Shown here piece by piece: positions 1-25,947 of a stretch of DNA of 64,000 nt. A model generated the notes under the pieces. It worked only from the letters and a program-made list of their open reading frames with translations, was not told the origin of the DNA and made no database searches. The DNA is from a virus. The DNA lies in UHGV virus genome UHGV-0026213, one strand, 5' to 3'. Positions within the stretch are counted from its first letter, which is position 1. Each line of letters opens with the position of its first letter. Made by a program: the position numbers and the translations under genes.

Positions 1-1
1 A

Positions 2-3000
2 GAAACAGCGAAGCAACAAACTGACACGTTAGCTTCCACAGTTAGCGAGCAAGCGGGAACCGTTGCCACTAAAACTGCCGAGGTTAGCAAAAAACACGCT
101 GAAGTTTTAGCCGCGAAAACGGCCGTAGATACTGTATTACAATCGGTAAATGAGAAAGCTCAAGCTGTCGCCACAAGCGAACAATCGGTGACGGCTGCAG
201 CGGCTGATGTAACTAAGAAAGCAGAAACGGTTACGCAACAGGCCGGACAAGTTCAACAGACGGCTACCGGTGTCGAGAATACTGCGGCTTCAGTTGAGGC
301 CAGTAAGGGCGCAGTGGAGAAGATTGCTGCACAGGTCGCGAAAGATAAAGAAAGTTCAGAAGGCGCAGCAACACGTTCGGAGTCAGCTGCCTTACGTGCG
401 GAGAAAATCGCTGCGCAGGGCTTAATCGACGCCAGTACGACCGGTAAAGGTATCGTTAAACTTAACGATACACTGACTAGCGAATCCGTGACTGAGGCCG
501 CCACACCGTCCACGGTTAAACAGCTGAATGACGAATTACAGTTAAAAGCCAATAAACATTCGCCGAATTTTACGGGTAAACCGTCATCCCCAACACCCCC
601 GAAGGACTCGAACGACACGAGCATCTCCACAACGGCCTGGGTGCGTGACGCGATTGCGGAACTGGTTGGTTCTTCACCCGAGACGTTAAATACCTTAGCG
701 GAATTAGCTGAGGCGTTAGGTAATGACCCTAACTTCGCAACAACGATTACTGGGGAACTTGCGCAGAAACAACCTCTCAGTCCGTTGCTCACCGCCATTG
801 CCGCAGTCACCACAGCGGCAAATAAACTCATGTATTTCACTGGCAGTAATAAAGTCCGATTAACGGATTTTACAGAAACGGCTAGATCCTTGTTAGCGAA
901 AGGGTCAACTGCGGATATCATCAATTTCTTGGGATTAAGAACCACCGTAGATAAAGCGAATGGTGCGCTACAGAAAAACTCTAACGGCGCTGATATCCCA
1001 GATAAAGAAACTTTTGCTCGAAACATCGGCCTATCTCCTGATACCTATCTGCGTTTCCGTGGCGAAATGCCTGTAGATGCTGATATTAACACATTTGCTC
1101 CAGATGCCAATTACACAGGAACGTGGGCTAAGTCGACATCAACCAATGCGTCGATGGCAAAACACTTCCCAGAAGACGGTGCGGTCGGTTATCTGGAAGT
1201 GTATAAAGCCGGTAATTACAGCGGTGCGCAACGTTTTACCTGTCGTAATGGTAACGTGTACAACCGTATGTTGTCAGGTGCGTGGAATGGTGCCAATGGA
1301 CCCTGGTCGCCGTGGAGAATGGTAACTACTGGTGTACGTCCGTTATCTACCTCTATAGACTTGAACTCTCTGGGTGGCGCTGAGCATATGGGTAACTGGC
1401 GAAACTCAAGCAGTTCGCTGGCTGTGTTTAGCAGACATTACCCTGAAGAAGGTGGTGGTGCGCAAGGCGTACTAGAAGTAATGGAAGGTGGTCTTTTCGG
1501 ACGGTTGCAGCGATACACTACGCGTCGTGGTACAATGTATGTTCGTGGTTTGACTGCAACGTGGGATTCATCAAACCCACAATGGGAAGATTGGATTCAG
1601 GTTGGTTATCAGACTGACGGTGCTTTCTTTAAAGCCAATTTTAACGATCTCGTTAAACCGGGACGTTTCAGTGTCACTGGTGAAGCAACTAATGGCCCAC
1701 TTACCGGTTCTTCTGGTGAAACCATATTAGGTGTTTGTGAAGTTACCTTACGCTTAGACGGTACAGGGGTCGAACAGAATTATACTACATACGGTACGGG
1801 TGTAGAAACTAAAGGTCGTAAATTCCAACGTATCCGTACGGGTAACGCTTGGAGCGATTGGCGTGAGGTTTTCACATCGTATTCGCTTCCGCTGGTATTA
1901 GGTATCGGCGGTGAACGTGCGAATGTTGATCCTTTAGACTGGCAAACCTATGACTTTAAACCAGGTGAGTTAATCTGTACGCCGCTTAACACCATGAAAA
2001 ACATTCCTGCGGGAATGGATTGGGGTGTTATTGACGGTAACTTAGTTAGCATTCTGGTTGGTCCATCAGATGGCGCATCCTCAGCCCGGAGTATGTTGGT
2101 TTGGCGTAGTACGGTGTCTACTGCCAACTATCGATTCTTTGCAGTACGTATCGCTGGTGAGAAAGGTAGTCGTACGATTACGCCACGACAGATGCCTGTA
2201 TTGAATGCAGCACACACCTGGGCAGAAAAACAGACCTTTGCAAAAGGGTTAGCAGGCGAGTTAACAGGCAATGCTTCAACCGCAACGAAATTAAAGACCG
2301 CACGTAGAATTGGTGGAGTCGCTTTCGACGGTAGTGGTGATATTAACCTCCCGGGTGTTAACCAACAAGGTAATCAAAACACCACGGGTAATGCCGGTAC
2401 AGCCACTAAACTTCAAACTGCCAGAAATATTAACGGTGTGAGATTCGATGGTTCTGCTGACATCAATATCAACACCTTGGTGGGTCGTGGTCGGGTTACT
2501 GCACTAACCGGTTCAAACAAAGGTACGCCTGGTATTCAGATGTACGAAGTTTACAATAACGGTTATCCGACCGCTTATGGTAACTTGCTGCATTTGGGCG
2601 GTTCTACTGCGCTAGGTGAAGGTGAACTGTTAATCGGTTGGTCGGGCACGAGTGGTGCGCACGCACCCGTTTATATTCGTAGTCGACGCGATACAGCGGA
2701 TGCGCCGTGGTCAGATTGGGCACAAGTTTATACTGCCCGTGATAGTATTCCTGGTGTAAATACCACCGGTAATCAAGATACTACTGGTAACGCTGCTACC
2801 GCGACGAAACTGAAAACTGCTCGCAGAATCGGGGGCGTTACCTTTGACGGTACTGGGGATATCAATTTACCGGGGGTTAACCAGCAAGGTAACCAGAATA
2901 CGACAGGTAATGCAGCAACCGCCACTAAGTTACAAACACCACGTAAGATCGGTGGTGTTAACTTTGACGGTTCGCAAGACATTAGTCTGCCCGGTGTGAA

Positions 3001-4375
3001 CCAAACCGGTAACCAATCGACTACGGGGAATGCTGCGACTGCGACTAAGCTCCAGACTGCGCGAAATATAGGTGGCGTAGCTTTTGATGGTACCAAAGAC
3101 ATCAACTTACCTGGCGTAAACCAAACGGGTAATCAGTCGACCACCGGAAACGCGGCCACGGCAACGAAGTTGCAAACTGCAAGGACCATCAACGGTGTTC
3201 CGTTTGATGGCACTAAAAACATCGAAATAACGGCTGAAAGTTTAAACCTTGGGCAAACTGTAGAATTGGCCGGTGGGTCATTGCAGAAGAAACAGAACGG
3301 TGCCGATATTCCAGATAAAAGGAAATTCTTACGAAATGTTGGTGCCCCGAACACAACAACCATATCTTTTAATGGTGGTGCCGGATGGTTCAAACTGGCA
3401 ACTGTAACGATGCCACAAGCCAGTTCCGTGGTTTACATAAGCCTGATTGGTGGTGCAGGGTTTAACGTTGGTTCCCCGCATCAAGCAGGTATCTCTGAGC
3501 TGGTTCTGCGTGCAGGAAATGGGAATCCAAAAGGTATTACTGGTGCGTTATGGCGACTGACCTCAGTCGGCTTCACTAATTTTGCATGGGTGAATACATC
3601 TGGTGACACTTACGATATTTATGTTGAAATAGGTAATTACGCCACCGGTGTTAATATTCAGTGGGACTACACTAGTAATGCCAACGTAACGATTCACACA
3701 TCGCCAAGTTATACGGCTAATAAACCCGCAGGACTAACAGACGGTACCGTCTATCTGATTTACAGCACACACAACAAACCTAACGCTGGTGACGTCGGTG
3801 CGTTACCGTCAGGGGGCGGTACTATAGGTGGCGATTTAACCGTTAACGGTAAATTGGTCACTAAGTACCCTGATTTTCGAATCGCTTACGGCAACTACGG
3901 CTTTATGTTACGTAACGATGGTGCCAATACCTATTTCTTAGTAACCGACGCCGGACAAGCTGCAACGGGTTCCTGGAACGGACTACGTCCGTTGTATTTT
4001 AATAACGCTAACGGCCAAGTAACCTTTGGTCATAACGTTACTGGCAGCGGTAACGGTTCGTTTAACGACGTACAGATTCGTTCTGACCGTCGTAACAAAC
4101 GTAATCTGGTGAAACTGGATAAAGCTTTGGATCGGTTAGAGTTACTAACCGGTTATTTGTACGAAATTCAGCATCCGGATGACGGTTGGCAAACCTCTGT
4201 AGGTCTAATTGCTCAAGACGCATTAGAAGCGTTACCTGAACTTGTGTCTGAGGATGATGATGCCATTTCAGGCGAAAAACGTTTACGTCTAAACTACAAT
4301 GGCGTTATTGCGCTGTTAGTAGAGGGTATGAAAGCGTTGCGTCAAGAGGTTAACGAAATTAAAGGAAGATCCTAA
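2..4375 (+). CDS. Long tail fibre protein, 5' partial (frame open from window start); coiled-coil N-terminal part, about seven ~34-aa fibre repeats, C-terminal intramolecular chaperone (peptidase S74-like) domain
   Basis: Frame is open from position 2 with no stop before the first listed start at 188. Repeats of the form GNQxTTGNAATATKLxTARxIGGVxFDGxxDI match the phage tail fibre repeat pattern. C-terminus RSDRRNKRNLVKLDKALDRLELLTGYLYEIQ...EGMKALRQEV matches self-cleaving chaperone domains of endosialidase and L-shaped tail fibres. Conserved NGADIPDK(x)F(x)RN(I/V)G motif occurs twice. Confidence 0.85.
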   Translation, partial: ETAKQQTDTLASTVSEQAGTVATKTAEVSKKHAEVLAAKTAVDTVLQSVNEKAQAVATSEQSVTAAAADVTKKAETVTQQAGQVQQTATGVENTAASVEASKGAVEKIAAQVAKDKESSEGAATRSESAALRAEKIAAQGLIDASTTGKGIVKLNDTLTSESVTEAATPSTVKQLNDELQLKANKHSPNFTGKPSSPTPPKDSNDTSISTTAWVRDAIAELVGSSPETLNTLAELAEALGNDPNFATTITGELAQKQPLSPLLTAIAAVTTAANKLMYFTGSNKVRLTDFTETARSLLAKGSTADIINFLGLRTTVDKANGALQKNSNGADIPDKETFARNIGLSPDTYLRFRGEMPVDADINTFAPDANYTGTWAKSTSTNASMAKHFPEDGAVGYLEVYKAGNYSGAQRFTCRNGNVYNRMLSGAWNGANGPWSPWRMVTTGVRPLSTSIDLNSLGGAEHMGNWRNSSSSLAVFSRHYPEEGGGAQGVLEVMEGGLFGRLQRYTTRRGTMYVRGLTATWDSSNPQWEDWIQVGYQTDGAFFKANFNDLVKPGRFSVTGEATNGPLTGSSGETILGVCEVTLRLDGTGVEQNYTTYGTGVETKGRKFQRIRTGNAWSDWREVFTSYSLPLVLGIGGERANVDPLDWQTYDFKPGELICTPLNTMKNIPAGMDWGVIDGNLVSILVGPSDGASSARSMLVWRSTVSTANYRFFAVRIAGEKGSRTITPRQMPVLNAAHTWAEKQTFAKGLAGELTGNASTATKLKTARRIGGVAFDGSGDINLPGVNQQGNQNTTGNAGTATKLQTARNINGVRFDGSADININTLVGRGRVTALTGSNKGTPGIQMYEVYNNGYPTAYGNLLHLGGSTALGEGELLIGWSGTSGAHAPVYIRSRRDTADAPWSDWAQVYTARDSIPGVNTTGNQDTTGNAATATKLKTARRIGGVTFDGTGDINLPGVNQQGNQNTTGNAATATKLQTPRKIGGVNFDGSQDISLPGVNQTGNQSTTGNAATATKLQTARNIGGVAFDGTKDINLPGVNQTGNQSTTGNAATATKLQTARTINGVPFDGTKNIEITAESLNLGQTVELAGGSLQKKQNGADIPDKRKFLRNVGAPNTTTISFNGGAGWFKLATVTMPQASSVVYISLIGGAGFNVGSPHQAGISELVLRAGNGNPKGITGALWRLTSVGFTNFAWVNTSGDTYDIYVEIGNYATGVNIQWDYTSNANVTIHTSPSYTANKPAGLTDGTVYLIYSTHNKPNAGDVGALPSGGGTIGGDLTVNGKLVTKYPDFRIAYGNYGFMLRNDGANTYFLVTDAGQAATGSWNGLRPLYFNNANGQVTFGHNVTGSGNGSFNDVQIRSDRRNKRNLVKLDKALDRLELLTGYLYEIQHPDDGWQTSVGLIAQDALEALPELVSEDDDAISGEKRLRLNYNGVIALLVEGMKALRQEVNEIKGRS
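2270..3240 (+). repeat. Tandem in-frame ~100-120 nt coding repeats (fibre repeat units) inside the tail fibre gene
   Basis: Repeated protein units ...TGNAATATKL(Q/K)TAR.IGGV.FDG..DINLPGVNQ(Q/T)GNQ.T... in the translation; they create the spurious antisense ORFs 2773..3105 and 3133..3393. Confidence 0.8.
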
Positions 4376-5157
4376 TGGCAGTTGTCGGCGTAGGTGGTTG
4401 GATTGGTTCTTCAGCAAAAGCTGAAGCTGGTAACGAATGGATGTCTGGCGCGATGCGCACACTTGGTGTGCCGGTTCCAGGCTGGATGTCGCAATTGGCG
4501 GGAAAATCAAAAGAGGTCCATTATTCTATTGGTGCTAACCATAGCTATAATAAGGATACTCTTATTAACTATTTACGTTCTTTAGGCTCTACTGCTGTCG
4601 TTGTGACCATTACAGGGGATTTAGTGTCTTATAGTAGCGGGGTTCCTTGTTTAGAATTCCCTAGCAATCTTCCAAATTCGTATATTACACTCATCATCAA
4701 TCCTGGGGTTACAGTATACGGCAGAGGAGGCAACGGCGGTTCTAACTCACCAGGCGGTGCAGGTGGAACCGCAATACAGAACGGAATAGGAAACAGACTG
4801 CGTATAACCAACCGTGGCGCTATTGCCGGAGGCGGTGGCGGCGGTGGCGGCGGTAACAGGGGTAGACTAATATTTGGTGGTGGCGGTGGTCGCCCATTCG
4901 GTGCTGGTGGGTCTTCCTCTCATATGAGTTCCGGTGCGGCTGCTGGTACTATTTCCGCTCCTGGTAAAGGATCTGTTGGTGAGGGGTCTCTTAGTGCATA
5001 TACAGGCGGTTCGGGTGGTAATGTCGGTGCTGCTGGAGGAAGATGTAATACTCATGGTAACGGTACAGAATATAACGGCGGAGCAGCTGGTGCAGCTGTT
5101 ACTGGTAATGCGCCAAGATGGGACGCAGTAGGTGCAATATACGGTTCACGTGTTTAA
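4375..5157 (+). CDS. Glycine-rich tail-fibre tip adhesin-like protein (T2/S16 gp38-like, from recalled similarity)
   Basis: Start overlaps the fibre gene stop (TAATG) with AAAGGAAG RBS. N-terminus MAVVGVGGWIGSSA...WMSQLAGKS followed by Gly-rich motifs (GGNGGSNSPGGAGG, G9 run, GGGGGRPFGAGG). Position immediately 3' of a processed fibre gene fits a receptor-binding adhesin. Confidence 0.6.
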   Translation: MAVVGVGGWIGSSAKAEAGNEWMSGAMRTLGVPVPGWMSQLAGKSKEVHYSIGANHSYNKDTLINYLRSLGSTAVVVTITGDLVSYSSGVPCLEFPSNLPNSYITLIINPGVTVYGRGGNGGSNSPGGAGGTAIQNGIGNRLRITNRGAIAGGGGGGGGGNRGRLIFGGGGGRPFGAGGSSSHMSSGAAAGTISAPGKGSVGEGSLSAYTGGSGGNVGAAGGRCNTHGNGTEYNGGAAGAAVTGNAPRWDAVGAIYGSRV

Positions 5158-5173
5158 TTAAAAAAGAGGGTAG

Positions 5174-5677
5174 ATGGGGGTAGCGTCAGGATGGGTCGGT
5201 TCTTCGGCCAAGAACGAAACGGGCGAACAATGGATGAGCGCTGCGGGTAGTAAATTAGGATTGGGTAGACCTTTTATGATGAGCCAAATGGTGGGACGAT
5301 CTATGGGCTGTAAAATTGCAACTGCTGCATATAGCGATTCTTTAGGTAAGAAATGGGGAGCAGTAGGGCCAAGTTGGCCGTTAAACCAGAAAAATCAGGG
5401 GACCATTCAAAACGCGGGTAACTGCGGGGTGGGAACTTTAGTAGGTATTGAGTTACAGTTAACGACGATAGTTGCCAACGCAAAGCCTACTTTAGCGGTT
5501 TACTTACAAGGAGGCAGAGCCTCTAACATTACCGTAAATTTAGGTGGCAACACCTGCGCGCTGACCTATCAGCAGGTTATTAACGGACAGCATTATTACT
5601 GGACTAATAACATCAGCGCTGCGTTCCAAAACGTGATGAAATCGACAGGCGCACTACGTGATTTGAGAATTAGCTAA
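5174..5677 (+). CDS. Paralogue of the adhesin-like protein: shared N-terminal ~45 aa, different C-terminal domain
   Basis: N-terminus MGVASGWVGSSAKNETGEQWMSAAG...MMSQMVGRS aligns with the 4375 protein N-terminus; C-terminal part lacks poly-Gly runs. Confidence 0.5.
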   Translation: MGVASGWVGSSAKNETGEQWMSAAGSKLGLGRPFMMSQMVGRSMGCKIATAAYSDSLGKKWGAVGPSWPLNQKNQGTIQNAGNCGVGTLVGIELQLTTIVANAKPTLAVYLQGGRASNITVNLGGNTCALTYQQVINGQHYYWTNNISAAFQNVMKSTGALRDLRIS

Positions 5678-5711: not shown

Positions 5712-5721
5712 GGGGGGGGGG
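5712..5721. repeat. Intergenic G10 homopolymer followed by TGA
   Basis: cggggggggggtgaaatg read directly; same GGGGGGGGGTGA string as at 6737. Confidence 0.7.
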
Positions 5722-6610: not shown

Positions 6611-6748
6611 ATGGTTCAACCAATTGGAAAGAAACGTATCCATGAACTCGACAATTTCTCTGGCGATCTCAAAGGTGCGGTAGTTCTCCTTTCTAAGGAA
6701 GAAAAAGAATATAAAATTGATATTGCAGAACTTCAAGGGGGGGGGTGA
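6611..6748 (+). CDS. 45-codon ORF with strong RBS ending in GGG GGG GGG TGA; candidate N-terminal segment of the downstream esterase via frameshift or homopolymer length change
   Basis: GGAGG RBS 5 nt before ATG at 6611; translation MVQPIGKKRIHELDNFSGDLKGAVVLLSKEEKEYKIDIAELQGGG*. The downstream ORF frame is open from 6721 and is reached by a -1 shift or one extra G. Confidence 0.35.
   Translation: MVQPIGKKRIHELDNFSGDLKGAVVLLSKEEKEYKIDIAELQGGG
6737..6745 (+). repeat. G9 homopolymer at the junction between the 45-codon ORF and the esterase ORF
   Basis: cttcaagggggggggtgacg read directly. Confidence 0.7.
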
Positions 6749-8736
6749 CGGAACCGGATTATTACTTCGTGATCCCTATAGCCGGGCAATCTAATGCGAT
6801 GAGTTATGGTGAAGGATTGCCTCTACCAGCGACGTTGGACGCTCCCGATCCGCGGATTAAACAGATGGCACGCCGTACGAAGGTAACGCCTAATGGAGCT
6901 GATTGTAAGTATAACGACGTCATTCCAGCGGATCACTGTCTGCACGACGTGCAAGATATGTCCGTATTCTCGCATCCCAATGCCAATTTGGACAAAGGTG
7001 AATACGGATGTGTGGGTCAAGGTCTACACATCGCGAAGCGTCTTCTCCCGTATATTCCTAGCAACGCTGGTATCTTACTAGTACCCTGCGCACGCGGTGG
7101 TTCTGCTTTTACAGGTGGTGCAGAAGGTACCTTCGATGACGCCACAGGAGCCTCTGCGGCGTCATCGGTATGGGGGGTGGAAAAACCGCTTTATAAAGAT
7201 TTAGTTAGCCGGACCAAAAAAGCTCTGGAGGTTAATCCTAAAAATAAACTCCTGGCTGTAGTGTGGATGCAGGGAGAGTATGATCTGACTAAAGTAGGTT
7301 ACGCACAACAACCAGCGCTATTTAACGCTATGGTAGAGCGTTTCCGAACTGATCTCTCTGACCATCTCCCTCAGATGCCCGAGTACGACACCGCCGAAGT
7401 ACCATGGATCTGCGGGGACACTACCTACTATTGGAAGGAAAAATATCCTGCTCAATATGAAACCATATACGGTAATTATCGTAACAATGAACAAAAAAAT
7501 ATCTTTTTTGTTCCATTCATGTACGACGATAATGGCCAACGTGTACCGACTAATGATCCCACTGACGATCCTGATATCGCCGCTGCTGCTTACTACGGTG
7601 CTGCCTCCCGTAGTAATAAAAACTGGACGTCTGAAACAAGGAATAGCCATTTCAGTTCTTGGGCTCGACGCGGTATTATCTCAGAGAGAATAGCTGCTGA
7701 GATATTATCAAGAACAGCGATTGGTGCAATGCTCATGACGAAGAACGACACTAAAGAGCTCAAAGACAATATGAATGTGGTAAGAAGCTATACCCCATTA
7801 GTAGAGTCTGTGGGTTATAACGGACGTCGTGGAGATGGTTCCCTGAAAGGGCAAGGTTGGAACAATACCATTGATTGTAACGTAACCGTGCAAAAATCTG
7901 AGGATGGAAATGGACATTTCGTCGAATTAAGAAAGGCTGTAAGTAACAAACCTTGGAATGTAACCAGGTCAATGGCAACAGCTGCAGACATGATACGTTA
8001 CGGTGGACGTCTGACCGTTACTTTTAGACTAAAAGGTGATTTAGCAGCAAATCGTTTCGGGTTAGGACTTTATTGGCGTATCTCCGCGTCCGACCTACCT
8101 TCTGGTACTACACTTGCTGACGCTAGTGTGGCTGATACGAACCCGTACCTAATGTCTTTTTTCTTACAGACCGACGCTACGAATCTTTATCTGATGCATC
8201 ATAAAAAGCAGAATGTGCAATTAGGAACTTTCGGTGCGTACGATAATAACTGGCATACGCTTGAAATCATTTATCCGGGTGACAATAAAATCAAAGTCAC
8301 GCCTGTGCTTGACGGCAAGAATGGCACTCCATTTGATCTGGCGAACAGTACAGCTAAGACCAATTTGAACGAATTGGTTCTGACAGATATTACGAAAGTT
8401 ATTGCCTACGATATCGATATTTCGAAGTTTGAGATCTCGGTCAATCGTGATTCTGGTAGTATAGTGTTATCTGAGGAAGATGTATCGTCTTATGTGTATT
8501 TCCCAGCCACCAACCGTGGCGGCCAACTTACTATTCCTGATCTAGAATATAGCGTGGGTAGAAATATTCAGATCGTGGCAAATAAGGCTGGTTCGATCAC
8601 CGTTAAACCGGAAAATTCAAACGTTCTCATCACTCCAAAGAGTGGGACGGAAGGTCTTGCCAAACCCATTGAGACCAATGAAAGTATTACGCTAATGCAA
8701 GTTGGCTCCGATGGTAAAAGCTGGGTAGTTATTTAA
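6745..8736 (+). CDS. SGNH/SASA-like carbohydrate esterase with C-terminal beta-rich domain; candidate virion-associated polysaccharide deacetylase
   Basis: N-terminal VIPIAGQSNAMSYG resembles the GQSNM motif of sialate O-acetylesterase-like SGNH hydrolases. 663 aa; sits in the tail-fibre neighbourhood. Annotated GTG start is the last base of a G9 run. Confidence 0.55.
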   Translation: MTEPDYYFVIPIAGQSNAMSYGEGLPLPATLDAPDPRIKQMARRTKVTPNGADCKYNDVIPADHCLHDVQDMSVFSHPNANLDKGEYGCVGQGLHIAKRLLPYIPSNAGILLVPCARGGSAFTGGAEGTFDDATGASAASSVWGVEKPLYKDLVSRTKKALEVNPKNKLLAVVWMQGEYDLTKVGYAQQPALFNAMVERFRTDLSDHLPQMPEYDTAEVPWICGDTTYYWKEKYPAQYETIYGNYRNNEQKNIFFVPFMYDDNGQRVPTNDPTDDPDIAAAAYYGAASRSNKNWTSETRNSHFSSWARRGIISERIAAEILSRTAIGAMLMTKNDTKELKDNMNVVRSYTPLVESVGYNGRRGDGSLKGQGWNNTIDCNVTVQKSEDGNGHFVELRKAVSNKPWNVTRSMATAADMIRYGGRLTVTFRLKGDLAANRFGLGLYWRISASDLPSGTTLADASVADTNPYLMSFFLQTDATNLYLMHHKKQNVQLGTFGAYDNNWHTLEIIYPGDNKIKVTPVLDGKNGTPFDLANSTAKTNLNELVLTDITKVIAYDIDISKFEISVNRDSGSIVLSEEDVSSYVYFPATNRGGQLTIPDLEYSVGRNIQIVANKAGSITVKPENSNVLITPKSGTEGLAKPIETNESITLMQVGSDGKSWVVI

Positions 8737-9711: not shown

Positions 9712-10151
9712 AACCAAATACTACTAATGGCATTATGTTACTTTGTGATTCTGAAACGTTAGCAAACCGTATTCGTGGTTTGATGCAAGTACGTTGGCAG
9801 CAGAAAGTTCTCGTGGATTACGATGCACCGTTTGTTCACGTTAGTTGGTTGCCAGAATCTAGTGATTTCAAAGAAAGTATAACCACGAGAAGAATTAAAG
9901 AATGGTTATCGGCAATCATTAATAAACAGATTACCGTTATCAATTTCCAGTTGTTCGGTACCGCTGAAGAACATGAAATCTTGAAACAGTGTTTAAAAGC
10001 GTTGGGTCTTGCCTTCTCTGTTCGTGGAAGTTGCTACACGGCTTACTTTATCGGTTCACTTGAACTGTTTAAGAATACGCTAATGCTTCAACTAAAAGAC
10101 GACTACAAACTTTTAGATAAAATCGATTTCGAATTCCCAGGCATGATTTAA
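9708..10151 (+). CDS. Hypothetical protein
   Basis: 147-aa ORF, ATGA start/stop overlap with upstream gene. Confidence 0.6.
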   Translation: MKPNTTNGIMLLCDSETLANRIRGLMQVRWQQKVLVDYDAPFVHVSWLPESSDFKESITTRRIKEWLSAIINKQITVINFQLFGTAEEHEILKQCLKALGLAFSVRGSCYTAYFIGSLELFKNTLMLQLKDDYKLLDKIDFEFPGMI

Positions 10152-10197
10152 AGAATCATCGCTTAATCACCCCACCATTTACCTAAAGGAGCATTAA

Positions 10198-10713
10198 ATG
10201 TCAGTAAATATTAACATGAATCTTTATACTAAACGTGAACGTCAGATTCTGGCGAATCAACCCGGTGTTACGACTATCGACGGTAAACCTATTGACCGTT
10301 TAAAAGTTATCGTTGCGCGAAATTGTCATGAACGCGATTGGGACATTACCTACTTCCGTTGTTGTTCGGTCGCAAATGCGCTTACTCAACTCTCTAACTA
10401 CCACTCAGGACCGCTATTAAAAGACTGGGTTTGGTTAGTGCCTAGAACACCCTCAGCAATTGAGTATCCTTCTGGGTTAGTTTATATTCGTCCTGTCGCT
10501 TACCCAGAGCGTCTGAAAGAGTATCTTGAAGTTATCTGGAACCGTCCTCGTAAAGAGCTGGTGACGATTATTAATTTACTGCAGCAGATCGAAATCCCTG
10601 GTGTTTTGAATTTGAAACTCACGTCTCGCGATATTAACCAGGCTTACTGGGAACTAGAGTGGACTGAACCGAAATTCGAAAACAGTAACCGCATTTTCTT
10701 GCATCGGGGGTAA
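10198..10713 (+). CDS. Hypothetical protein
   Basis: 171-aa ORF preceded by the recurrent tttacctaaaggag RBS context. Confidence 0.6.
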   Translation: MSVNINMNLYTKRERQILANQPGVTTIDGKPIDRLKVIVARNCHERDWDITYFRCCSVANALTQLSNYHSGPLLKDWVWLVPRTPSAIEYPSGLVYIRPVAYPERLKEYLEVIWNRPRKELVTIINLLQQIEIPGVLNLKLTSRDINQAYWELEWTEPKFENSNRIFLHRG

Positions 10714-22286: not shown

Positions 22287-22834
22287 TCATCGTCTCCTTT
22301 AATCAACCCTAATTCGATTAACAGTTCAAAATCGATATGACGGAATCTTGTGTCGAAGTCAGATTCCCAATCGATACGGATACCCTGGCATTCTTCTGGC
22401 GTTAGCTCAGGAAAAATCACGCTATTAAATTTCTCCCGCTCATCGTAAAACCCATCAATCGGTGAGTTCGGGTTACGTGTTGCGAAGATAGTAATGCCTG
22501 GGAAGGACAATGCCAACACAGTGATAGATTCTGCGCTGGGTTCGCTTAAAGAGCGGCGTAGAAACGCAATTTTGTGACGTGGGAAATCCAATACCCGCTC
22601 TTCAAACCCTGGATTACGTTTTTCGATTTCCGCGACCGACAGGTCAGTAAGTTCGGTGCAGTACATCGGGATGATCACAGTCACGCCGTGACGAATCAGC
22701 AAGCGTTTTACGTCATCGGTAAAATCTTCACCGTTAATCACCACATAACAACCGAATAGCTTACTGTTTTCCAGAAACTTATCCAGAAGTCGAATTCTAC
22801 GCTTCGTAATATTGTTGATCAGAATTGGTTTCAT
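22262..22834 (-). CDS. Hypothetical protein in the radical-SAM/peptide operon
   Basis: 190-aa ORF overlapping the radical-SAM gene end. Confidence 0.55.
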   Translation of the reverse strand: MKPILINNITKRRIRLLDKFLENSKLFGCYVVINGEDFTDDVKRLLIRHGVTVIIPMYCTELTDLSVAEIEKRNPGFEERVLDFPRHKIAFLRRSLSEPSAESITVLALSFPGITIFATRNPNSPIDGFYDEREKFNSVIFPELTPEECQGIRIDWESDFDTRFRHIDFELLIELGLIKGDDECLLLVKA

Positions 22835-24119
22835 CTTTGGCTTCTCTTAATAATTTTTCCTTTTGGGCGCGTTCACGGACACAGCGTGGACAATAACACA
22901 TACTCGTGTCGTGGAACGCTTTTGCTGACGTCGTACCCATCTTCTGTTTCCAGTATTCCGCCACCATCAGTTTCGCTGTCGTCCAGCCACACTGACGTCG
23001 TTCAGCGTGATACGCTTTACGGTCTTCTAACGTTCCTTCCCCGTTCTCGTAAGAAGCCGCCGCGCAGCTACCACAAGCGTGTTTCATCGGACAACCTAAA
23101 CAGGTCTCTGGGTAGTTGGTATATTGCGTTTGAATCTCTTCTAACAATTTACCGTTGTCCAGACTGACGAATTCCCGACCTACCAACTCAAACACCGCAG
23201 AACGTGACGTTACCGTTGACATAAAGCGGTTACAGCCAAAGATCTTACGGTCAAACCCTAAGCACGTCATGTGCGTTAACGTCCCACAGAACGGACGTAA
23301 ACGTTCTGGGTTCAACCGTACGGTGTCATTATACAGTAACTGGTCACGCCAGTTCGGTTCCCAAATCGTATCGAAATCCAACCCTTCTGGAATGATGTGC
23401 GATAAGATATTACGTGGGTTGGTGTGTAATCCTTTCTCAACCCAATAATCTATCACATCCATCATCTGTAAAGCGATTGACGTCGCCATGCTACGTGGCA
23501 TAACGTCTTCGAAAGTTACGTTTCCAGAAATTGTCCCACCGCCAGTAATGTCAATTAATGACTTCATCCCCGCAGCATAGAACGGCAGCGTTTCTAACGT
23601 AAAGGTTGCTTTTACGCCGAGCTCTGCAATGCCAACCTCTTTTAAGTAGTTATAGCCACGTACTGCGGCTTCGTAAGAACCTTGACGTGTCGTTGTGAAG
23701 ATACGGTATCGATCGTGGGACTCCGGTAAGCCGTCAATCGAAACCCCAACTGAAAGTTTGTCTTTCCAACGTTCTACAATCTCACGGTTCAACGGACGAT
23801 CTAACAGCGTTCCGTTCGTGGAGATACTAAACATAAACGGTCGGTTGTGTTCTTTGCACAACTGCTCAGCGGTTTCAAACGCAGCCAGCAGCAGTTTAGG
23901 CTGCATGAACGGCTCACCACCGATAATGTCGATAATAACTTCAACATTCGGTTCGTTTTTATCACGTTCAAAACAGGCGTGCAAGAAATCAACAATGTCG
24001 GCCGCTTTGTTGTTACGTGGGTACTTACGTTCGTAACAATATTCGCAGTCCAGGTTACACGAAAGGTTGGTTACAATCTGATACGTTAACTGCTTAGGGA
24101 ATTCATTTGCTTGGCTCAT
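22797..24119 (-). CDS. Radical SAM enzyme with SPASM/twitch-like Cys-rich C-terminal domain; candidate peptide maturase
   Basis: CNLDCEYC (CX3CX2C) at residues about 21-28 and IIGGEPFM glycine-rich SAM motif; C-terminal CGTLTHMTC...CLGCPMKHACGSC...CYCPRC cysteine cluster. Confidence 0.8.
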   Translation of the reverse strand: MSQANEFPKQLTYQIVTNLSCNLDCEYCYERKYPRNNKAADIVDFLHACFERDKNEPNVEVIIDIIGGEPFMQPKLLLAAFETAEQLCKEHNRPFMFSISTNGTLLDRPLNREIVERWKDKLSVGVSIDGLPESHDRYRIFTTTRQGSYEAAVRGYNYLKEVGIAELGVKATFTLETLPFYAAGMKSLIDITGGGTISGNVTFEDVMPRSMATSIALQMMDVIDYWVEKGLHTNPRNILSHIIPEGLDFDTIWEPNWRDQLLYNDTVRLNPERLRPFCGTLTHMTCLGFDRKIFGCNRFMSTVTSRSAVFELVGREFVSLDNGKLLEEIQTQYTNYPETCLGCPMKHACGSCAAASYENGEGTLEDRKAYHAERRQCGWTTAKLMVAEYWKQKMGTTSAKAFHDTSMCYCPRCVRERAQKEKLLREAKDETNSDQQYYEA

Positions 24120-25026
24120 TTGCCGCCCCTCTATTACGCCCTGCCATCACCACACGACGAATATATTCGTACGCCTCTACACCGATAGAGAAGGCCAGTT
24201 GGTTACATCCCGATTCCAGAACGTTAGGCGCATTCTGGAGTTGGTGCTCACCGCCGTCTGCATTAATCCAAAGACTTTCGCTGCAAACGTTACACCCTTC
24301 TTCAAACACTTTACTTACCGTAAAGCCGCATTCACGACTATTTACTACATTCAGTCGTTCAATGTTGTCCTGAACCTGATAGTAGCCGTAAATAAAGTTC
24401 ATGACGTGGTCAGGCGATAAAGGTTTTGGCATTTTCGCATCTAAGAGTAACGTCATTGCACGGAAACCGTAATGGTAAATCGCGCTGTGCAGCTGAATAA
24501 TATCTTCGTGCCAGCGTTTGTCCCCTAAACGGTCCCGTGTCAGGACACCCCAAGTCTGGACATTATCCAGCTCGTAGATCGTTTCCAGTGCTTCGTAACA
24601 GCCTTCGTCAATAAAGCGCATAAACGGGCGCTCAGACGACTTAAACCCATCGATGCTAACGTAGACATTGTCAAACTGTTTTAGCAACGGGAGATGCGAT
24701 TTACGCATCTTTAAGCCATTGGTATACAACTGGTGTTTGAGTTCTGGACGAATCACTTTTAATTCGTCAACAAACGCCTCAATTTTACGGGTTGCCAGTA
24801 ATGGCTCACCACCCGTCCACTGAATTTCGGTAATGGTTGGATTAGCTTCCAGCGCTTCCAAAATTCGTTCACGTTGAAACTCTCGCGGAGAATCTTCACG
24901 ATTCATGTAATAGGCTCCACCGCAGAAGCTACAGTCCAGGTTACACTTGGACGTAGCGACTACGGACAATACGGTGGGTTTATCGTATAAACGATTCGAT
25001 AACCTTGGTTCTGCATTGGTTGTCAT
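24103..25026 (-). CDS. Radical SAM enzyme (second, shorter)
   Basis: CNLDCSFCGG CX3CX2C motif and WTGGEPLL; GGAG RBS. Confidence 0.75.
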   Translation of the reverse strand: MTTNAEPRLSNRLYDKPTVLSVVATSKCNLDCSFCGGAYYMNREDSPREFQRERILEALEANPTITEIQWTGGEPLLATRKIEAFVDELKVIRPELKHQLYTNGLKMRKSHLPLLKQFDNVYVSIDGFKSSERPFMRFIDEGCYEALETIYELDNVQTWGVLTRDRLGDKRWHEDIIQLHSAIYHYGFRAMTLLLDAKMPKPLSPDHVMNFIYGYYQVQDNIERLNVVNSRECGFTVSKVFEEGCNVCSESLWINADGGEHQLQNAPNVLESGCNQLAFSIGVEAYEYIRRVVMAGRNRGAANEPSK

Positions 25027-25047
25027 TGCAGGTGACTCCGGTCGTTT

Positions 25048-25947
25048 TTAAATATAATCAATGGCGAACAAAGGATCGTCGTCTACGTTAGCACCAGGGG
25101 TTAACAAGAATGGAGAGTTATACGCTTCCAAAATACGGTTAAGGTCTTTATAACGGACATTTAAACGTTCTAAATCCGCTAACGTTACGTTACGGTCCAA
25201 CACCGCCGACACTGCTGCTTTCTCTTCGTCAGTTAACGTGACTTTCGTCATTAAGAAACTAACGAGTTTTGCCAGATCCGCTTCTGTTGACGGATGCTCG
25301 CCAATACGTGTTTGAATCAAATGCTGCATCCAAGGCTTACGGATGCGTTTTGTGATTTCGTGTTCATCCGTCAGGGCAATCCACACGGAACGTTCACGAT
25401 CCCACACGAACTTATAGCTATACGCCATTAAATCCGCTAAGCAATTAATCCCTAACGCTTCGTACCCTTCAATTTCGATATACGATTCCGTATCGAAATA
25501 GTTCTTCGTTTCTGGTGTTACCAGGGTAAAGAAATACGGGAACGAGCCTAAGTAATCCGGCGACCACCAACGACGGGCAACTGGTTTTGCGCCCATTTCT
25601 TCAAATGGGGTAAAGAACAATTCCATATCTACGGAGTTATTCAAAATCCCGTCACTAAAGAAATATTTACCCGCAACCAGTTTACCACGCAACTCGGAGT
25701 CACCGGTAAAGACCACTACACTTTCTGCCGTCAGATCACGAATCTTAAACGTATTTTCTACACGATAGTTTTTACGATCGGTAAAGAAACGTCCGCGCAC
25801 TTTAGGCCATTCGCCCGGCAACTGAGTCAGCAGACGAACTTCATCTGCTAAGTGTGCACGTACGGAATCAGGGGAAGAAATGTGAAGTGGATGATTGAAA
25901 ATTGTTTTGTACGCTAAATGTAAATCATTCTTCATTGATTGCTCCAT
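25048..25947 (-). CDS. Hypothetical protein between peptide genes and radical-SAM genes
   Basis: 299-aa ORF, no motif recognised; candidate accessory protein by position only. Confidence 0.5.
   Translation of the reverse strand: MEQSMKNDLHLAYKTIFNHPLHISSPDSVRAHLADEVRLLTQLPGEWPKVRGRFFTDRKNYRVENTFKIRDLTAESVVVFTGDSELRGKLVAGKYFFSDGILNNSVDMELFFTPFEEMGAKPVARRWWSPDYLGSFPYFFTLVTPETKNYFDTESYIEIEGYEALGINCLADLMAYSYKFVWDRERSVWIALTDEHEITKRIRKPWMQHLIQTRIGEHPSTEADLAKLVSFLMTKVTLTDEEKAAVSAVLDRNVTLADLERLNVRYKDLNRILEAYNSPFLLTPGANVDDDPLFAIDYI

Follow-up and report, generated by a model that had tools for sequence, protein, structure and literature searches.

Downstream of a gp37-type distal tail-fibre gene, the jumbo phage genome UHGV-0026213 carries two adjacent genes, ORF1 and ORF2, whose products would, as we consider rather probable from comparative sequence data, compete as interchangeable caps for one fibre tip. 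Two interchangeable tip adhesins had already been proposed in a first-pass annotation, and this proposal gains comparative support from the single tip on each of four long jumbo contigs, the shared mature fibre end, purifying selection and a variable slot ahead of ORF2. Both kinds of adhesin are already known; their pairing and the cassette slot are modestly new. The window analysed is a stretch of 64,000 nucleotides of this genome, in which the following features were located:

1..4375, + strand: gp37-type gene for the distal tail fibre (Pfam and S16 gp37 matches), 5′ end beyond the window
4082..4372, + strand: Peptidase_S74 intramolecular chaperone domain of the fibre (PF13884, 2.3e-10, residues 1299-1353 of the listed ORF)
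4375..5157, + strand: ORF1, T2/S16-type gp38 adhesin of 260 aa (Pfam, phrog and PDB matches)
4828..4854, + strand: G9 run of ORF1 (G152-G160) in mixed GGN codons, the central glycine-rich motif of the polyglycine sandwich
5166..5170, + strand: Shine-Dalgarno-like GAGGG, 3 nt ahead of the ORF2 start codon and kept in related contigs
5174-5677, + strand: ORF2, 167 aa, starting 16 nt past the ORF1 stop
5174..5305, + strand: attachment segment of ORF2 (aa 1-44), a homologue of the N-terminal docking domain of gp38
5306..5677, + strand: C-terminal domain of ORF2 (aa 45-167) and stop codon, beta-rich, the presumed receptor-binding part

Since an upstream in-frame stop is absent, the fibre ORF extends past the left edge of the window. 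The full fibre of 1533 aa is found in contig ERZ27287186:k141_659670, which contains exact copies of both adhesins and a matching series of adjacent gene sizes; a gene of this length is called in loci L007 and L011. Pfam matches of the fibre are Phage_fiber_2, Gp34_trimer and Peptidase_S74, and its C-terminal 146 aa match S16 gp37 (PDB 6F45_A) at 9.4e-15. With a C-terminal S74 domain and a Ser-Asp...Lys start at the predicted cleavage site, the protein groups with the self-cleaving Peptidase_S74 fibres. The predicted cut lies between R (4079-4081) and S (4082-4084) and would leave the mature end ...GNGSFNDVQIR. Across this site, the fibre sequence ...NDVQIR↓SDRRNKRN aligns to ...RDLNVS↓SDRRIKKD of S16 gp37, and the motif R↓SDRRNKRN is kept in nine fibres (that of the window and eight others). 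The earlier description of the tail fibre as self-processing is therefore borne out in kind by the S74 match and the alignment spanning R↓SDRR, with the cut itself predicted. An identical mature end, NGSFNDVQIR, occurs in fibres followed by the short adhesin only (P13374, CMS-2020a SCU-175), and that of CMS-2020a SCU-107, with the long adhesin only, differs in one residue (Q to Y).

The ATG of ORF1 (4375-4377) overlaps the fibre stop codon TAA (4373-4375), forming the TAATG reported initially. ORF1 begins MAVVGVGGWIGSSA and includes WMSQLAGKS; its length of 260 aa and the run of nine glycines were read in the sequence as described. Its resemblance to the T2/S16 gp38 adhesins, suggested at first, is substantiated by a full-length match to Pfam GP38 (PF05268, 2.5e-70, profile positions 1-218 of 218) and by the structure of S16 gp38 (6F45_D, 9e-51), matched over residues 7-258. 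Further matches were obtained to Gp38_N (PF21721, 2.2e-14), phrog_2056 (5.9e-94) and PDB 9V85_A (1.8e-38), and neither ORF has a match in NCBIfam. An attachment domain (aa 1-46) is followed by the beta-helix and polyglycine-II sandwich (aa 47-260) that characterize gp38 of the T2/S16 type. The gene position is likewise that of this type, directly after a gp37-type fibre with a C-terminal chaperone domain, as seen from gene order, TAATG and the S74 domain with its predicted cleavage. Aligned with gp38 of JSE, RB49, FL18, EV240 and CMS-2020a, the G9 run shows no variation; it also aligns to a poly-Gly stretch in S16 gp38, whose helix 3 is given as 151-GGGGGGGG-158 in the CASP13 paper (PMC6851490).

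Residues 110-260 of ORF1 are 88% identical to gp38 of FL18, 81% to EV240 and 87% to RB49; for RB49/JSE, FL18 and EV240 taken together the range is 81-89%, loop segments included. FL18 and EV240 are reported to be OmpA-dependent, and the receptors of RB49 include OmpA (PMC12032242; bioRxiv 10.64898/2026.04.02.716166; PMC9569957). Because the receptor-binding half is this close to gp38 of OmpA-dependent coliphages, OmpA is likely the receptor of ORF1, bound by the polyglycine-sandwich loops. Identity to these coliphage proteins drops to 40-71% in the attachment domain and the initial part of the beta-helix, and ORF1 thus appears as a receptor-binding module on a lineage-specific base.

ORF2 matches Pfam Gp38_N (3.5e-20, residues 1-40) and phrog_1121 'tail fiber adhesin' (5.7e-46). 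Its attachment segment aligns to residues 1-62 of S16 gp38 and contains 20 invariant columns in an alignment of 16 homologues, 19 of them within aa 1-41. The common N-terminus followed by a different C-terminal domain, as originally noted, is recovered here as Gp38_N and a distinct C-domain. The latter is modelled confidently as a beta-rich fold that differs from that of ORF1, and it has no relative among solved structures. For the N-terminal segment pLDDT is <50, a value expected of a segment folding on its partner and uninformative. As a match to PF05268 is absent and the predicted fold is different, ORF2 lies outside the PF05268 family. The location of Gp38_N at residues 1-40, the separate domain that follows at 45-167 and the gene position after the fibre correspond to the RB43-type architecture and support assignment of ORF2 as a putative short gp38-like adhesin. 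An exhaustive search without a profile, queried with the C-domain, gave just five cluster representatives among 1.84 billion at E <=1e-10, among them two fragments and the cluster of the query itself; a further short Gp38_N protein (P0022) matches at 8e-10. Giant LapA and PKD repeat proteins gave multi-stretch matches that look compositional, and these were set aside.

Between ORF1 and ORF2, 21 of 38 N-terminal residues are identical (E 5e-10) and the C-terminal parts are unrelated. Both ORFs score above the 25-bit cut-off for Gp38_N, and by a six-frame profile scan the whole window contains these two copies of the shared segment alone. The term 'paralogous' used in the first-pass annotation consequently holds for the first ~45 residues and fails beyond them. 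The N-terminus of ORF1 is no nearer to ORF2 (55% identity) than to T-even gp38 (42-63%), so that the pair looks like a mosaic acquisition and not a local duplication. In S16, the gp37 base has three pockets that take up three conserved tryptophans of gp38 (PMC6851490). All three are found in ORF1 (W9, W22, W37); the corresponding positions of ORF2 are W7, W20 and M35, with Met in place of the third Trp. The same Met is present in close ORF2 homologues that are the sole adhesins of other phages. Due to this replacement, the affinity of ORF2 for the tip may differ from that of ORF1.

Values of dN/dS were 0.08-0.24 for ORF2 and 0.19-0.29 for ORF1 (three comparisons with dS >=0.07). Judged by these ratios, both genes are functional and are shown to be under purifying selection. 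The two closest ORF1 comparisons gave 0.5-0.7, resting on very few substitutions. Comparison of the window with L021/L022 revealed, for ORF2, a dN of 0.02 in the N-terminal segment and of 0.48 in the C-domain; the allele swap is confined to the C-domain, with an overall dN/dS of 0.2. Within the clade, the C-domain of ORF2 has on this evidence been exchanged as a module.

The window derives from a clade of uncultured jumbo phages (~222-225 kb) of the gut, with E. coli and Salmonella as hosts, that is common in metagenomes and occurs in clinical isolates of both; a human E. coli isolate (strain 98232) carries one member in the form of a circular "plasmid" of 222 kb. ORF2 was found in every clade member examined, and the slot ahead of it varies. 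In a tally that is biased, as many loci were retrieved by exact ORF1 or ORF2 sequence, this slot holds a gp38 of 260-264 aa in 12 distinct loci, a 212-aa gp38 with a 48-aa in-frame deletion in two (L005, L020), and, in one, a third kind of short adhesin (a distinct Gp38_N protein of 175 aa); it is empty in 3-4 loci. The deletion in L005 and L020 removes the central glycine motif. ORF2 is the constant adhesin of the lineage, and the position before it is an exchangeable cassette slot. The locus holds other putative receptor-binding proteins with a common N-terminal module. A scan for sigma-70 promoters and terminators between 3900 and 6900 gave counts not usefully above those of shuffled sequence; promoters of the sigma-70 type are not expected in such phages.

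With one docking segment common to both proteins, either cap probably fits each fibre and the virus probably recognises two receptors. We propose that the fibre would trimerise with the aid of its own C-terminal chaperone domain, which would then cut itself off at R↓SDRR and bare ...GNGSFNDVQIR. On this trimeric end one cap monomer would dock by its short N-terminal attachment segment. The phage would make two caps from the adjacent, co-oriented genes: that of ORF1 would most likely bind OmpA with its polyglycine-sandwich loops, and the beta-rich domain of that of ORF2 would bind a surface structure other than that of ORF1. As a single cap would fill the whole tip, each fibre would bear either ORF1 or ORF2, and virions would have mixed fibres and two receptor options. 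We infer that both caps dock on one tip and occur in virions, and we likewise infer their receptors.

Loss of ORF1 or its 48-aa deletion in several genomes shows that ORF1 is dispensable, and it could contribute little. Alternatively, ORF2 would be the sole working adhesin and ORF1 a recent import of a T-even gp38, little expressed or not incorporated, and in the course of being lost. The universal presence of ORF2 in the clade members examined fits this explanation, as do the absence of ORF1 from L006, L019, L166 and L167, its shortening by 48 residues in L005 and L020, and the syntenic locus of the cultured relatives SPN3US and pEa_SNUABM_29, where a Gp38_N gene is missing. An imported module is also suggested by the identity to coliphage gp38, 81-89% in the receptor-binding half vs 42-63% at the N-terminus. 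However, 12 of the 19 distinct loci in the biased tally have an undamaged ORF1, the gene has kept all three docking tryptophans, its dN/dS against diverged alleles is 0.19-0.29, and the L076 allele is diverged yet intact. Translational coupling to the fibre by TAATG (TAGTG in L009) likewise argues against a passenger, and we consider this explanation unlikely.

The two caps would not compete if ORF2 sat on another fibre or virion site than ORF1, each adhesin belonging to a separate structure. Against such an arrangement, the window contains no second tip of the same gp37 type, and four long jumbo contigs (152-225 kb) matched in an IMG/VR scan have one such fibre-tip locus apiece. In ORF2-only genomes, moreover, ORF2 lies immediately 3′ of the same fibre with the same mature end. 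Several fibre-like proteins in jumbo phages of the group, the further putative receptor-binding proteins at the locus that share an N-terminal module, and the missing third docking Trp of ORF2 leave separate sites a small probability. Marginally less probable still is a role of ORF2 as a fibre assembly factor, that is, a chaperone not retained in the virion: homologous short proteins of PEi20, PEi26 and RB16 are named 'distal long tail fiber assembly catalyst' in GenBank, but this name comes from T4 gp38, which acts in fibre folding and assembly and whose sequence is described as far removed from that of S16 gp38 (PMC6851490), Pfam matches of both ORFs stay within GP38 and Gp38_N when E values as high as 1 are admitted, which places neither in the T4 gp38-type chaperone family, the fibre has its own chaperone domain, the short protein of RB43 has its host-range mutations in the C-domain (PMC3157838), and the C-domain of ORF2 is swapped as a module, as expected for a specificity determinant.

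The two-cap model can be extended to a joint reading with plug-in host range at two levels, co-expressed competing caps and polyG switching, which we offer tentatively and consider somewhat doubtful as a whole. At the first level, several receptor-binding proteins would be joined to the virion by a common ~42-aa N-terminal module. At the second, the tip would take any of several Gp38_N caps, two of them co-expressed and competing. Mixed-tip virions in each burst would then be bet-hedging in protein assembly and not a genetic switch, and polyG tracts at the locus, where a G9/G10 tract lies at 6737-6745, would add on/off switching of another receptor-binding enzyme.

Among the host-range determinants of coliphages, adhesins of the gp38 type are the best understood and the easiest to re-engineer. 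Should one tip take two different natural caps at once, a second small gene could widen the host range with the fibre unaltered, and genome-based receptor prediction would have to count every Gp38_N gene beyond the canonical gp38. The gp37/gp38 module would also have moved as a unit into jumbo, SSU5-like phage-plasmid and short-tailed Stx phage lineages. The phage is common in metagenome assemblies and found in E. coli and Salmonella isolates of clinical origin, which gives its receptors practical relevance.

Among known systems, the gp37-gp38 tip of Salmonella phage S16 (PDB 6F45) shares with the fibre and ORF1 the self-cleaving C-terminal chaperone domain (cleavage predicted here), docking of a gp38 monomer by a three-Trp attachment domain (likewise predicted here), and the beta-helix with polyglycine-II sandwich. 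In contrast, S16 is a T4-like phage with a single gp38, whereas here a jumbo phage of ~224 kb has a second cap gene after ORF1, and ahead of the tip its fibre has a shaft of the Gp34_trimer / Mu-S type. ORF2 resembles the short adhesin of RB43/RB16, in which ~50 first residues homologous to T-even gp38 precede an unrelated domain of ~120 residues, encoded after gp37; in RB43, host-range mutations of the gp38-like adhesin were mapped to the C-domain (Trojet et al. 2011, PMC3157838). ORF2 and RB16 gp38 are 28% identical over 94% of the ORF2 length (E 1e-7). RB43 differs in that only one adhesin gene follows g37, at the gene-38 position, and the C-domain family of ORF2 is small. In RB49, the translation of a small ORF after gp37 showed no resemblance to Gp38_N by eye.

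The Edwardsiella phages PEi20 and PEi26 (Kanagawavirus) likewise have a pair of adjacent Gp38_N genes ('gene 38') after one distal fibre gene, although both copies are of the short type and annotated as assembly catalysts. A limited literature search returned no study of this pair or of two gp38 genes per phage. Full-length homologues with 60-65% identity to ORF2 occur in the Stx phages P13374, phi191 and 75/02 Stx (ORF65 fibre, ORF66 'tail fibre adhesin') and in the SSU5-like phage-plasmid CMS-2020a. These fibres have the identical mature end, NGSFNDVQIR↓SD(K/R)RNKRN; unlike in the window, the adhesin is the sole Gp38_N gene after the fibre. The SSU5-like contig L058 contains a short and a long adhesin with a 202-aa ORF between them. 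In the G-segment of phage Mu, one fibre base is combined with alternative receptor-binding ends, S/U or S′/U′, which widens the host range. Mu switches its tips via DNA inversion, resulting in one type per virion. Unlike in Mu, ORF1 and ORF2 are co-oriented and adjacent, so that one cell probably produces both.

The locus consists of three consecutive genes on the plus strand:

1-4375 (+): gp37-type distal tail-fibre gene with a predicted self-cleaving Peptidase_S74 chaperone domain at the C-terminal end
4375 (+): end of the fibre ORF and start of ORF1 on the same A, a TAATG overlap read from the sequence
4375-5157 (+): ORF1, long gp38 adhesin, 260 aa, several glycine blocks including G152-G160
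5174-5677 (+): ORF2, short gp38-like adhesin, 167 aa, beginning 16 nt past ORF1 with GAGGG shortly upstream

The fibre ORF continues past the left boundary of the window, with no stop there; in contig ERZ27287186:k141_659670, where both adhesins occur unchanged, it encodes 1533 aa. Pairwise comparison of ORF1 and ORF2 revealed 21 identical residues among 38 at the N-terminus (E 5e-10) and no similarity beyond it.

The resemblance of ORF1 to T2/S16-type gp38, proposed in the first-pass annotation, was confirmed by profile searches. Pfam GP38 covers ORF1 across the entire profile (2.5e-70), with additional matches to the N-terminal docking segment Gp38_N (2.2e-14) and to phrog_2056 (5.9e-94). 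Residues 7-258 match the solved S16 gp38 (6F45_D, 9e-51), and the receptor-binding domain of PP01 gp38 (9V85_A) is matched as well. The three tryptophans by which S16 gp38 is anchored in gp37 base pockets (PMC6851490) are all kept in ORF1. The G9 run (G152-G160) corresponds to the polyglycine sandwich's central glycine motif and does not vary when ORF1 is aligned to the gp38 of five coliphages. In every respect that could be tested, ORF1 is a gp38 protein. Its identity to coliphage gp38 proteins is only 42-63% in the attachment domain; across residues 110-260 it amounts to 88% for FL18, 81% for EV240 and 87-89% for RB49/JSE. OmpA dependence was reported for FL18 and EV240, and the receptors of RB49 are OmpA together with some O antigens (PMC12032242; bioRxiv 10.64898/2026.04.02.716166; PMC9569957). 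OmpA is therefore the most likely receptor of ORF1, as judged from sequence similarity.

ORF2 carries a Gp38_N match (3.5e-20), but its profile search against Pfam GP38 gave no match. Residues 1-160 match phrog_1121 'tail fiber adhesin' (5.7e-46). In an AlphaFold2 model built from 16 input sequences, residues 45-167 form a beta-rich domain predicted with confidence (pLDDT about 90), and the N-segment is of low confidence. Short gp38 proteins from Proteus phages are among the best matches in predicted viral structures, as are uncharacterised proteins from uncultured phages and from Vibrio phage VH7D. The C-domain belongs to a small family: of 1.84 billion cluster representatives, five reach E 1e-10, one of them from the query's own cluster and two of them fragments. 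The same architecture, a gp38 attachment segment followed by an unrelated C-domain, is found in RB43, whose adhesin joins a ~50-residue gp38 attachment domain to an unrelated domain of ~120 residues (Trojet et al., PMC3157838). RB16 gp38 is 28% identical across 94% of the ORF2 length. ORF2 lies outside PF05268 and fits the RB43-type class of short adhesins.

Considering both proteins together, we favour, with somewhat better than even confidence, a reading in which each cleaved fibre end would be capped by a single monomer, either ORF1 or ORF2. Mixed fibres would then offer two receptor options, with ORF2 as the adhesin that stays constant and the slot between fibre gene and ORF2 as an exchangeable cassette. 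ORF2 was found in every compared locus of the clade, the ~222-225 kb jumbo phages of E. coli and Salmonella to which the window belongs.

Content of the slot among nineteen distinct clade loci; counts are biased by the manner of locus retrieval
gp38, 260-264 aa: 12 distinct loci
gp38 with in-frame 48-aa deletion, central glycine motif gone: 2 loci (L005, L020)
different Gp38_N protein, 175 aa: 1 locus (L073)
nothing, ORF2 directly after fibre: 3-4 loci (L006, L019, L166, L167)

The main alternative, ORF1 as a dispensable import of little contribution, appears rather unlikely to us; dN/dS is 0.19-0.29 for ORF1 against diverged alleles and 0.08-0.24 for ORF2. The latter has alleles of two classes, 167 and 170 aa long, with a dN between them of 0.02 in the N-segment and 0.48 in the C-domain, a contrast indicating a modular swap. 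The third kind of Gp38_N protein (L073, reverse strand, 9801-10328) starts with MAVVEVPGYIGSSAKEVTGEEMMSAAMEALGVAVPGMMSEMAGLS and carries a new C-domain. The 48-aa deletion is identical in L005 (9346-9984) and L020 (5340-5978) and bounded by the near-repeats GGTGCAGGTGG and GGTGCTGGTGG; the ORF2 alleles of these contigs differ (100% and 92% identity to the window). It is either recurrent or was spread by recombination.

The fibre contains the Pfam domains Gp34_trimer and Peptidase_S74. Its last 146 residues match S16 gp37 (9.4e-15), with ...NDVQIR|SDRRNKRN aligned to ...RDLNVS|SDRRIKKD. Fibres with a short adhesin only behind them (Stx phage P13374, CMS-2020a SCU-175) have exactly the same predicted mature end, NGSFNDVQIR; it is changed in one residue where a long adhesin only (CMS-2020a SCU-107) or both (L058, an SSU5-like phage-plasmid contig) follow. 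No second fibre tip of this kind was found within the 64-kb window, and each of the four long jumbo contigs (152-225 kb) hit by an IMG/VR scan showed just one. That ORF2 caps some other structure is improbable, and less likely than ORF1 being an import. Also behind that alternative, and fainter still, is ORF2 as solely an assembly factor; in RB43 the C-domain of the short adhesin is the site of host-range mutations (PMC3157838).

Downstream of the adhesins, the entire region has the look of a receptor-binding protein hotspot. The gene after the DUF7941 protein (6745-8736; same slot in L004-L017) is hypervariable among clade members: a SASA esterase of 663-708 aa, a 731-aa protein, a 489-aa DUF6645 protein, a 644-aa DUF7941 protein or a 206-aa protein only. 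A ~42-aa N-terminal module (consensus M..P.GKKR.HEL......G...LL.SKEE.EY.L.I) is common to the fibre, the 206-aa protein and esterase-type proteins of 706-731 aa (window 6611-6745; L007 4601-4810; L004 11108-11317; L008 11110-11319). It probably serves several receptor-binding proteins as a shared means of docking to the virion; this would repeat, at the next level up, the design of the common Gp38_N segment.

Only two G runs of at least 8 occur in the window, at 5712-5721 and 6737-6745, with a chance expectation of ~0.2 runs of G9 or longer. The first, a G10 shortly past ORF2 and ~55 nt upstream of the DUF7941 gene, is G9-G11 in relatives and absent in some; a comparable G9-G11 run precedes the fibre gene by ~57 nt in L014, L018, L021, L165 and L166. 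The second, a G9, marks the junction of a 45-aa ORF (6611-6748) and the 663-aa SASA-esterase/DUF6645 ORF (6745-8736). Since L015 and L016 have G10 there and a single 708-aa protein, and L006 a fused 706-aa protein without a G run, one missing G separates the window's enzyme from its N-terminal piece; phase variation, slippage and an assembly error are all possible causes.

Outside the adhesin locus, the window shares ~73% DNA identity, in short stretches only, with Seoulvirus jumbo phages (SPN3US, SPFM, pEa_SNUABM_29). The longest DNA similarity to most cultured relatives lies at 22797-25947 (minus strand), where two adjacent ORFs resemble the radical SAM protein pair of SPFM/SPN3US-type phages. 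No Gp38_N gene was found at the syntenic loci of SPN3US and pEa_SNUABM_29, and the fibre-adhesin module is therefore specific to the clade. Public assemblies contain the exact ORF2 protein in 83 indexed blocks, in many cases on contigs of 221-225 kb, and Salmonella isolate assemblies also include clade members. One member (L168, NZ_CP173450.1) was deposited as a circular 'plasmid' of 221,873 bp from a human urinary E. coli isolate, suggesting a carrier state or pseudolysogeny; PGAP names there are 'tail fiber domain-containing protein', 'receptor-recognizing protein' and 'hypothetical protein'.

The sole Gp38_N gene after the fibre is an ORF2 homologue of 60-65% identity both in Stx phages (P13374 ORF66) and in one SSU5-like phage-plasmid. 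PEi20 and PEi26 also have two Gp38_N genes behind one fibre, but both are short. On the 107-kb contig L058 (6001-8816), a 185-aa short Gp38_N adhesin, a 202-aa ORF and a long gp38 all follow one fibre; the latter is a 296-aa ORF from the first start codon, its Gp38_N segment beginning ~22 residues in. Of two records of the related phage-plasmid CMS-2020a, one has the long adhesin only, the other the short only. A limited literature search turned up nothing on a single fibre with two gp38-type adhesins. Each protein is of a known kind, on which the combination of the two, the cassette slot and the occurrence of the module in a jumbo phage form a modest new variation.
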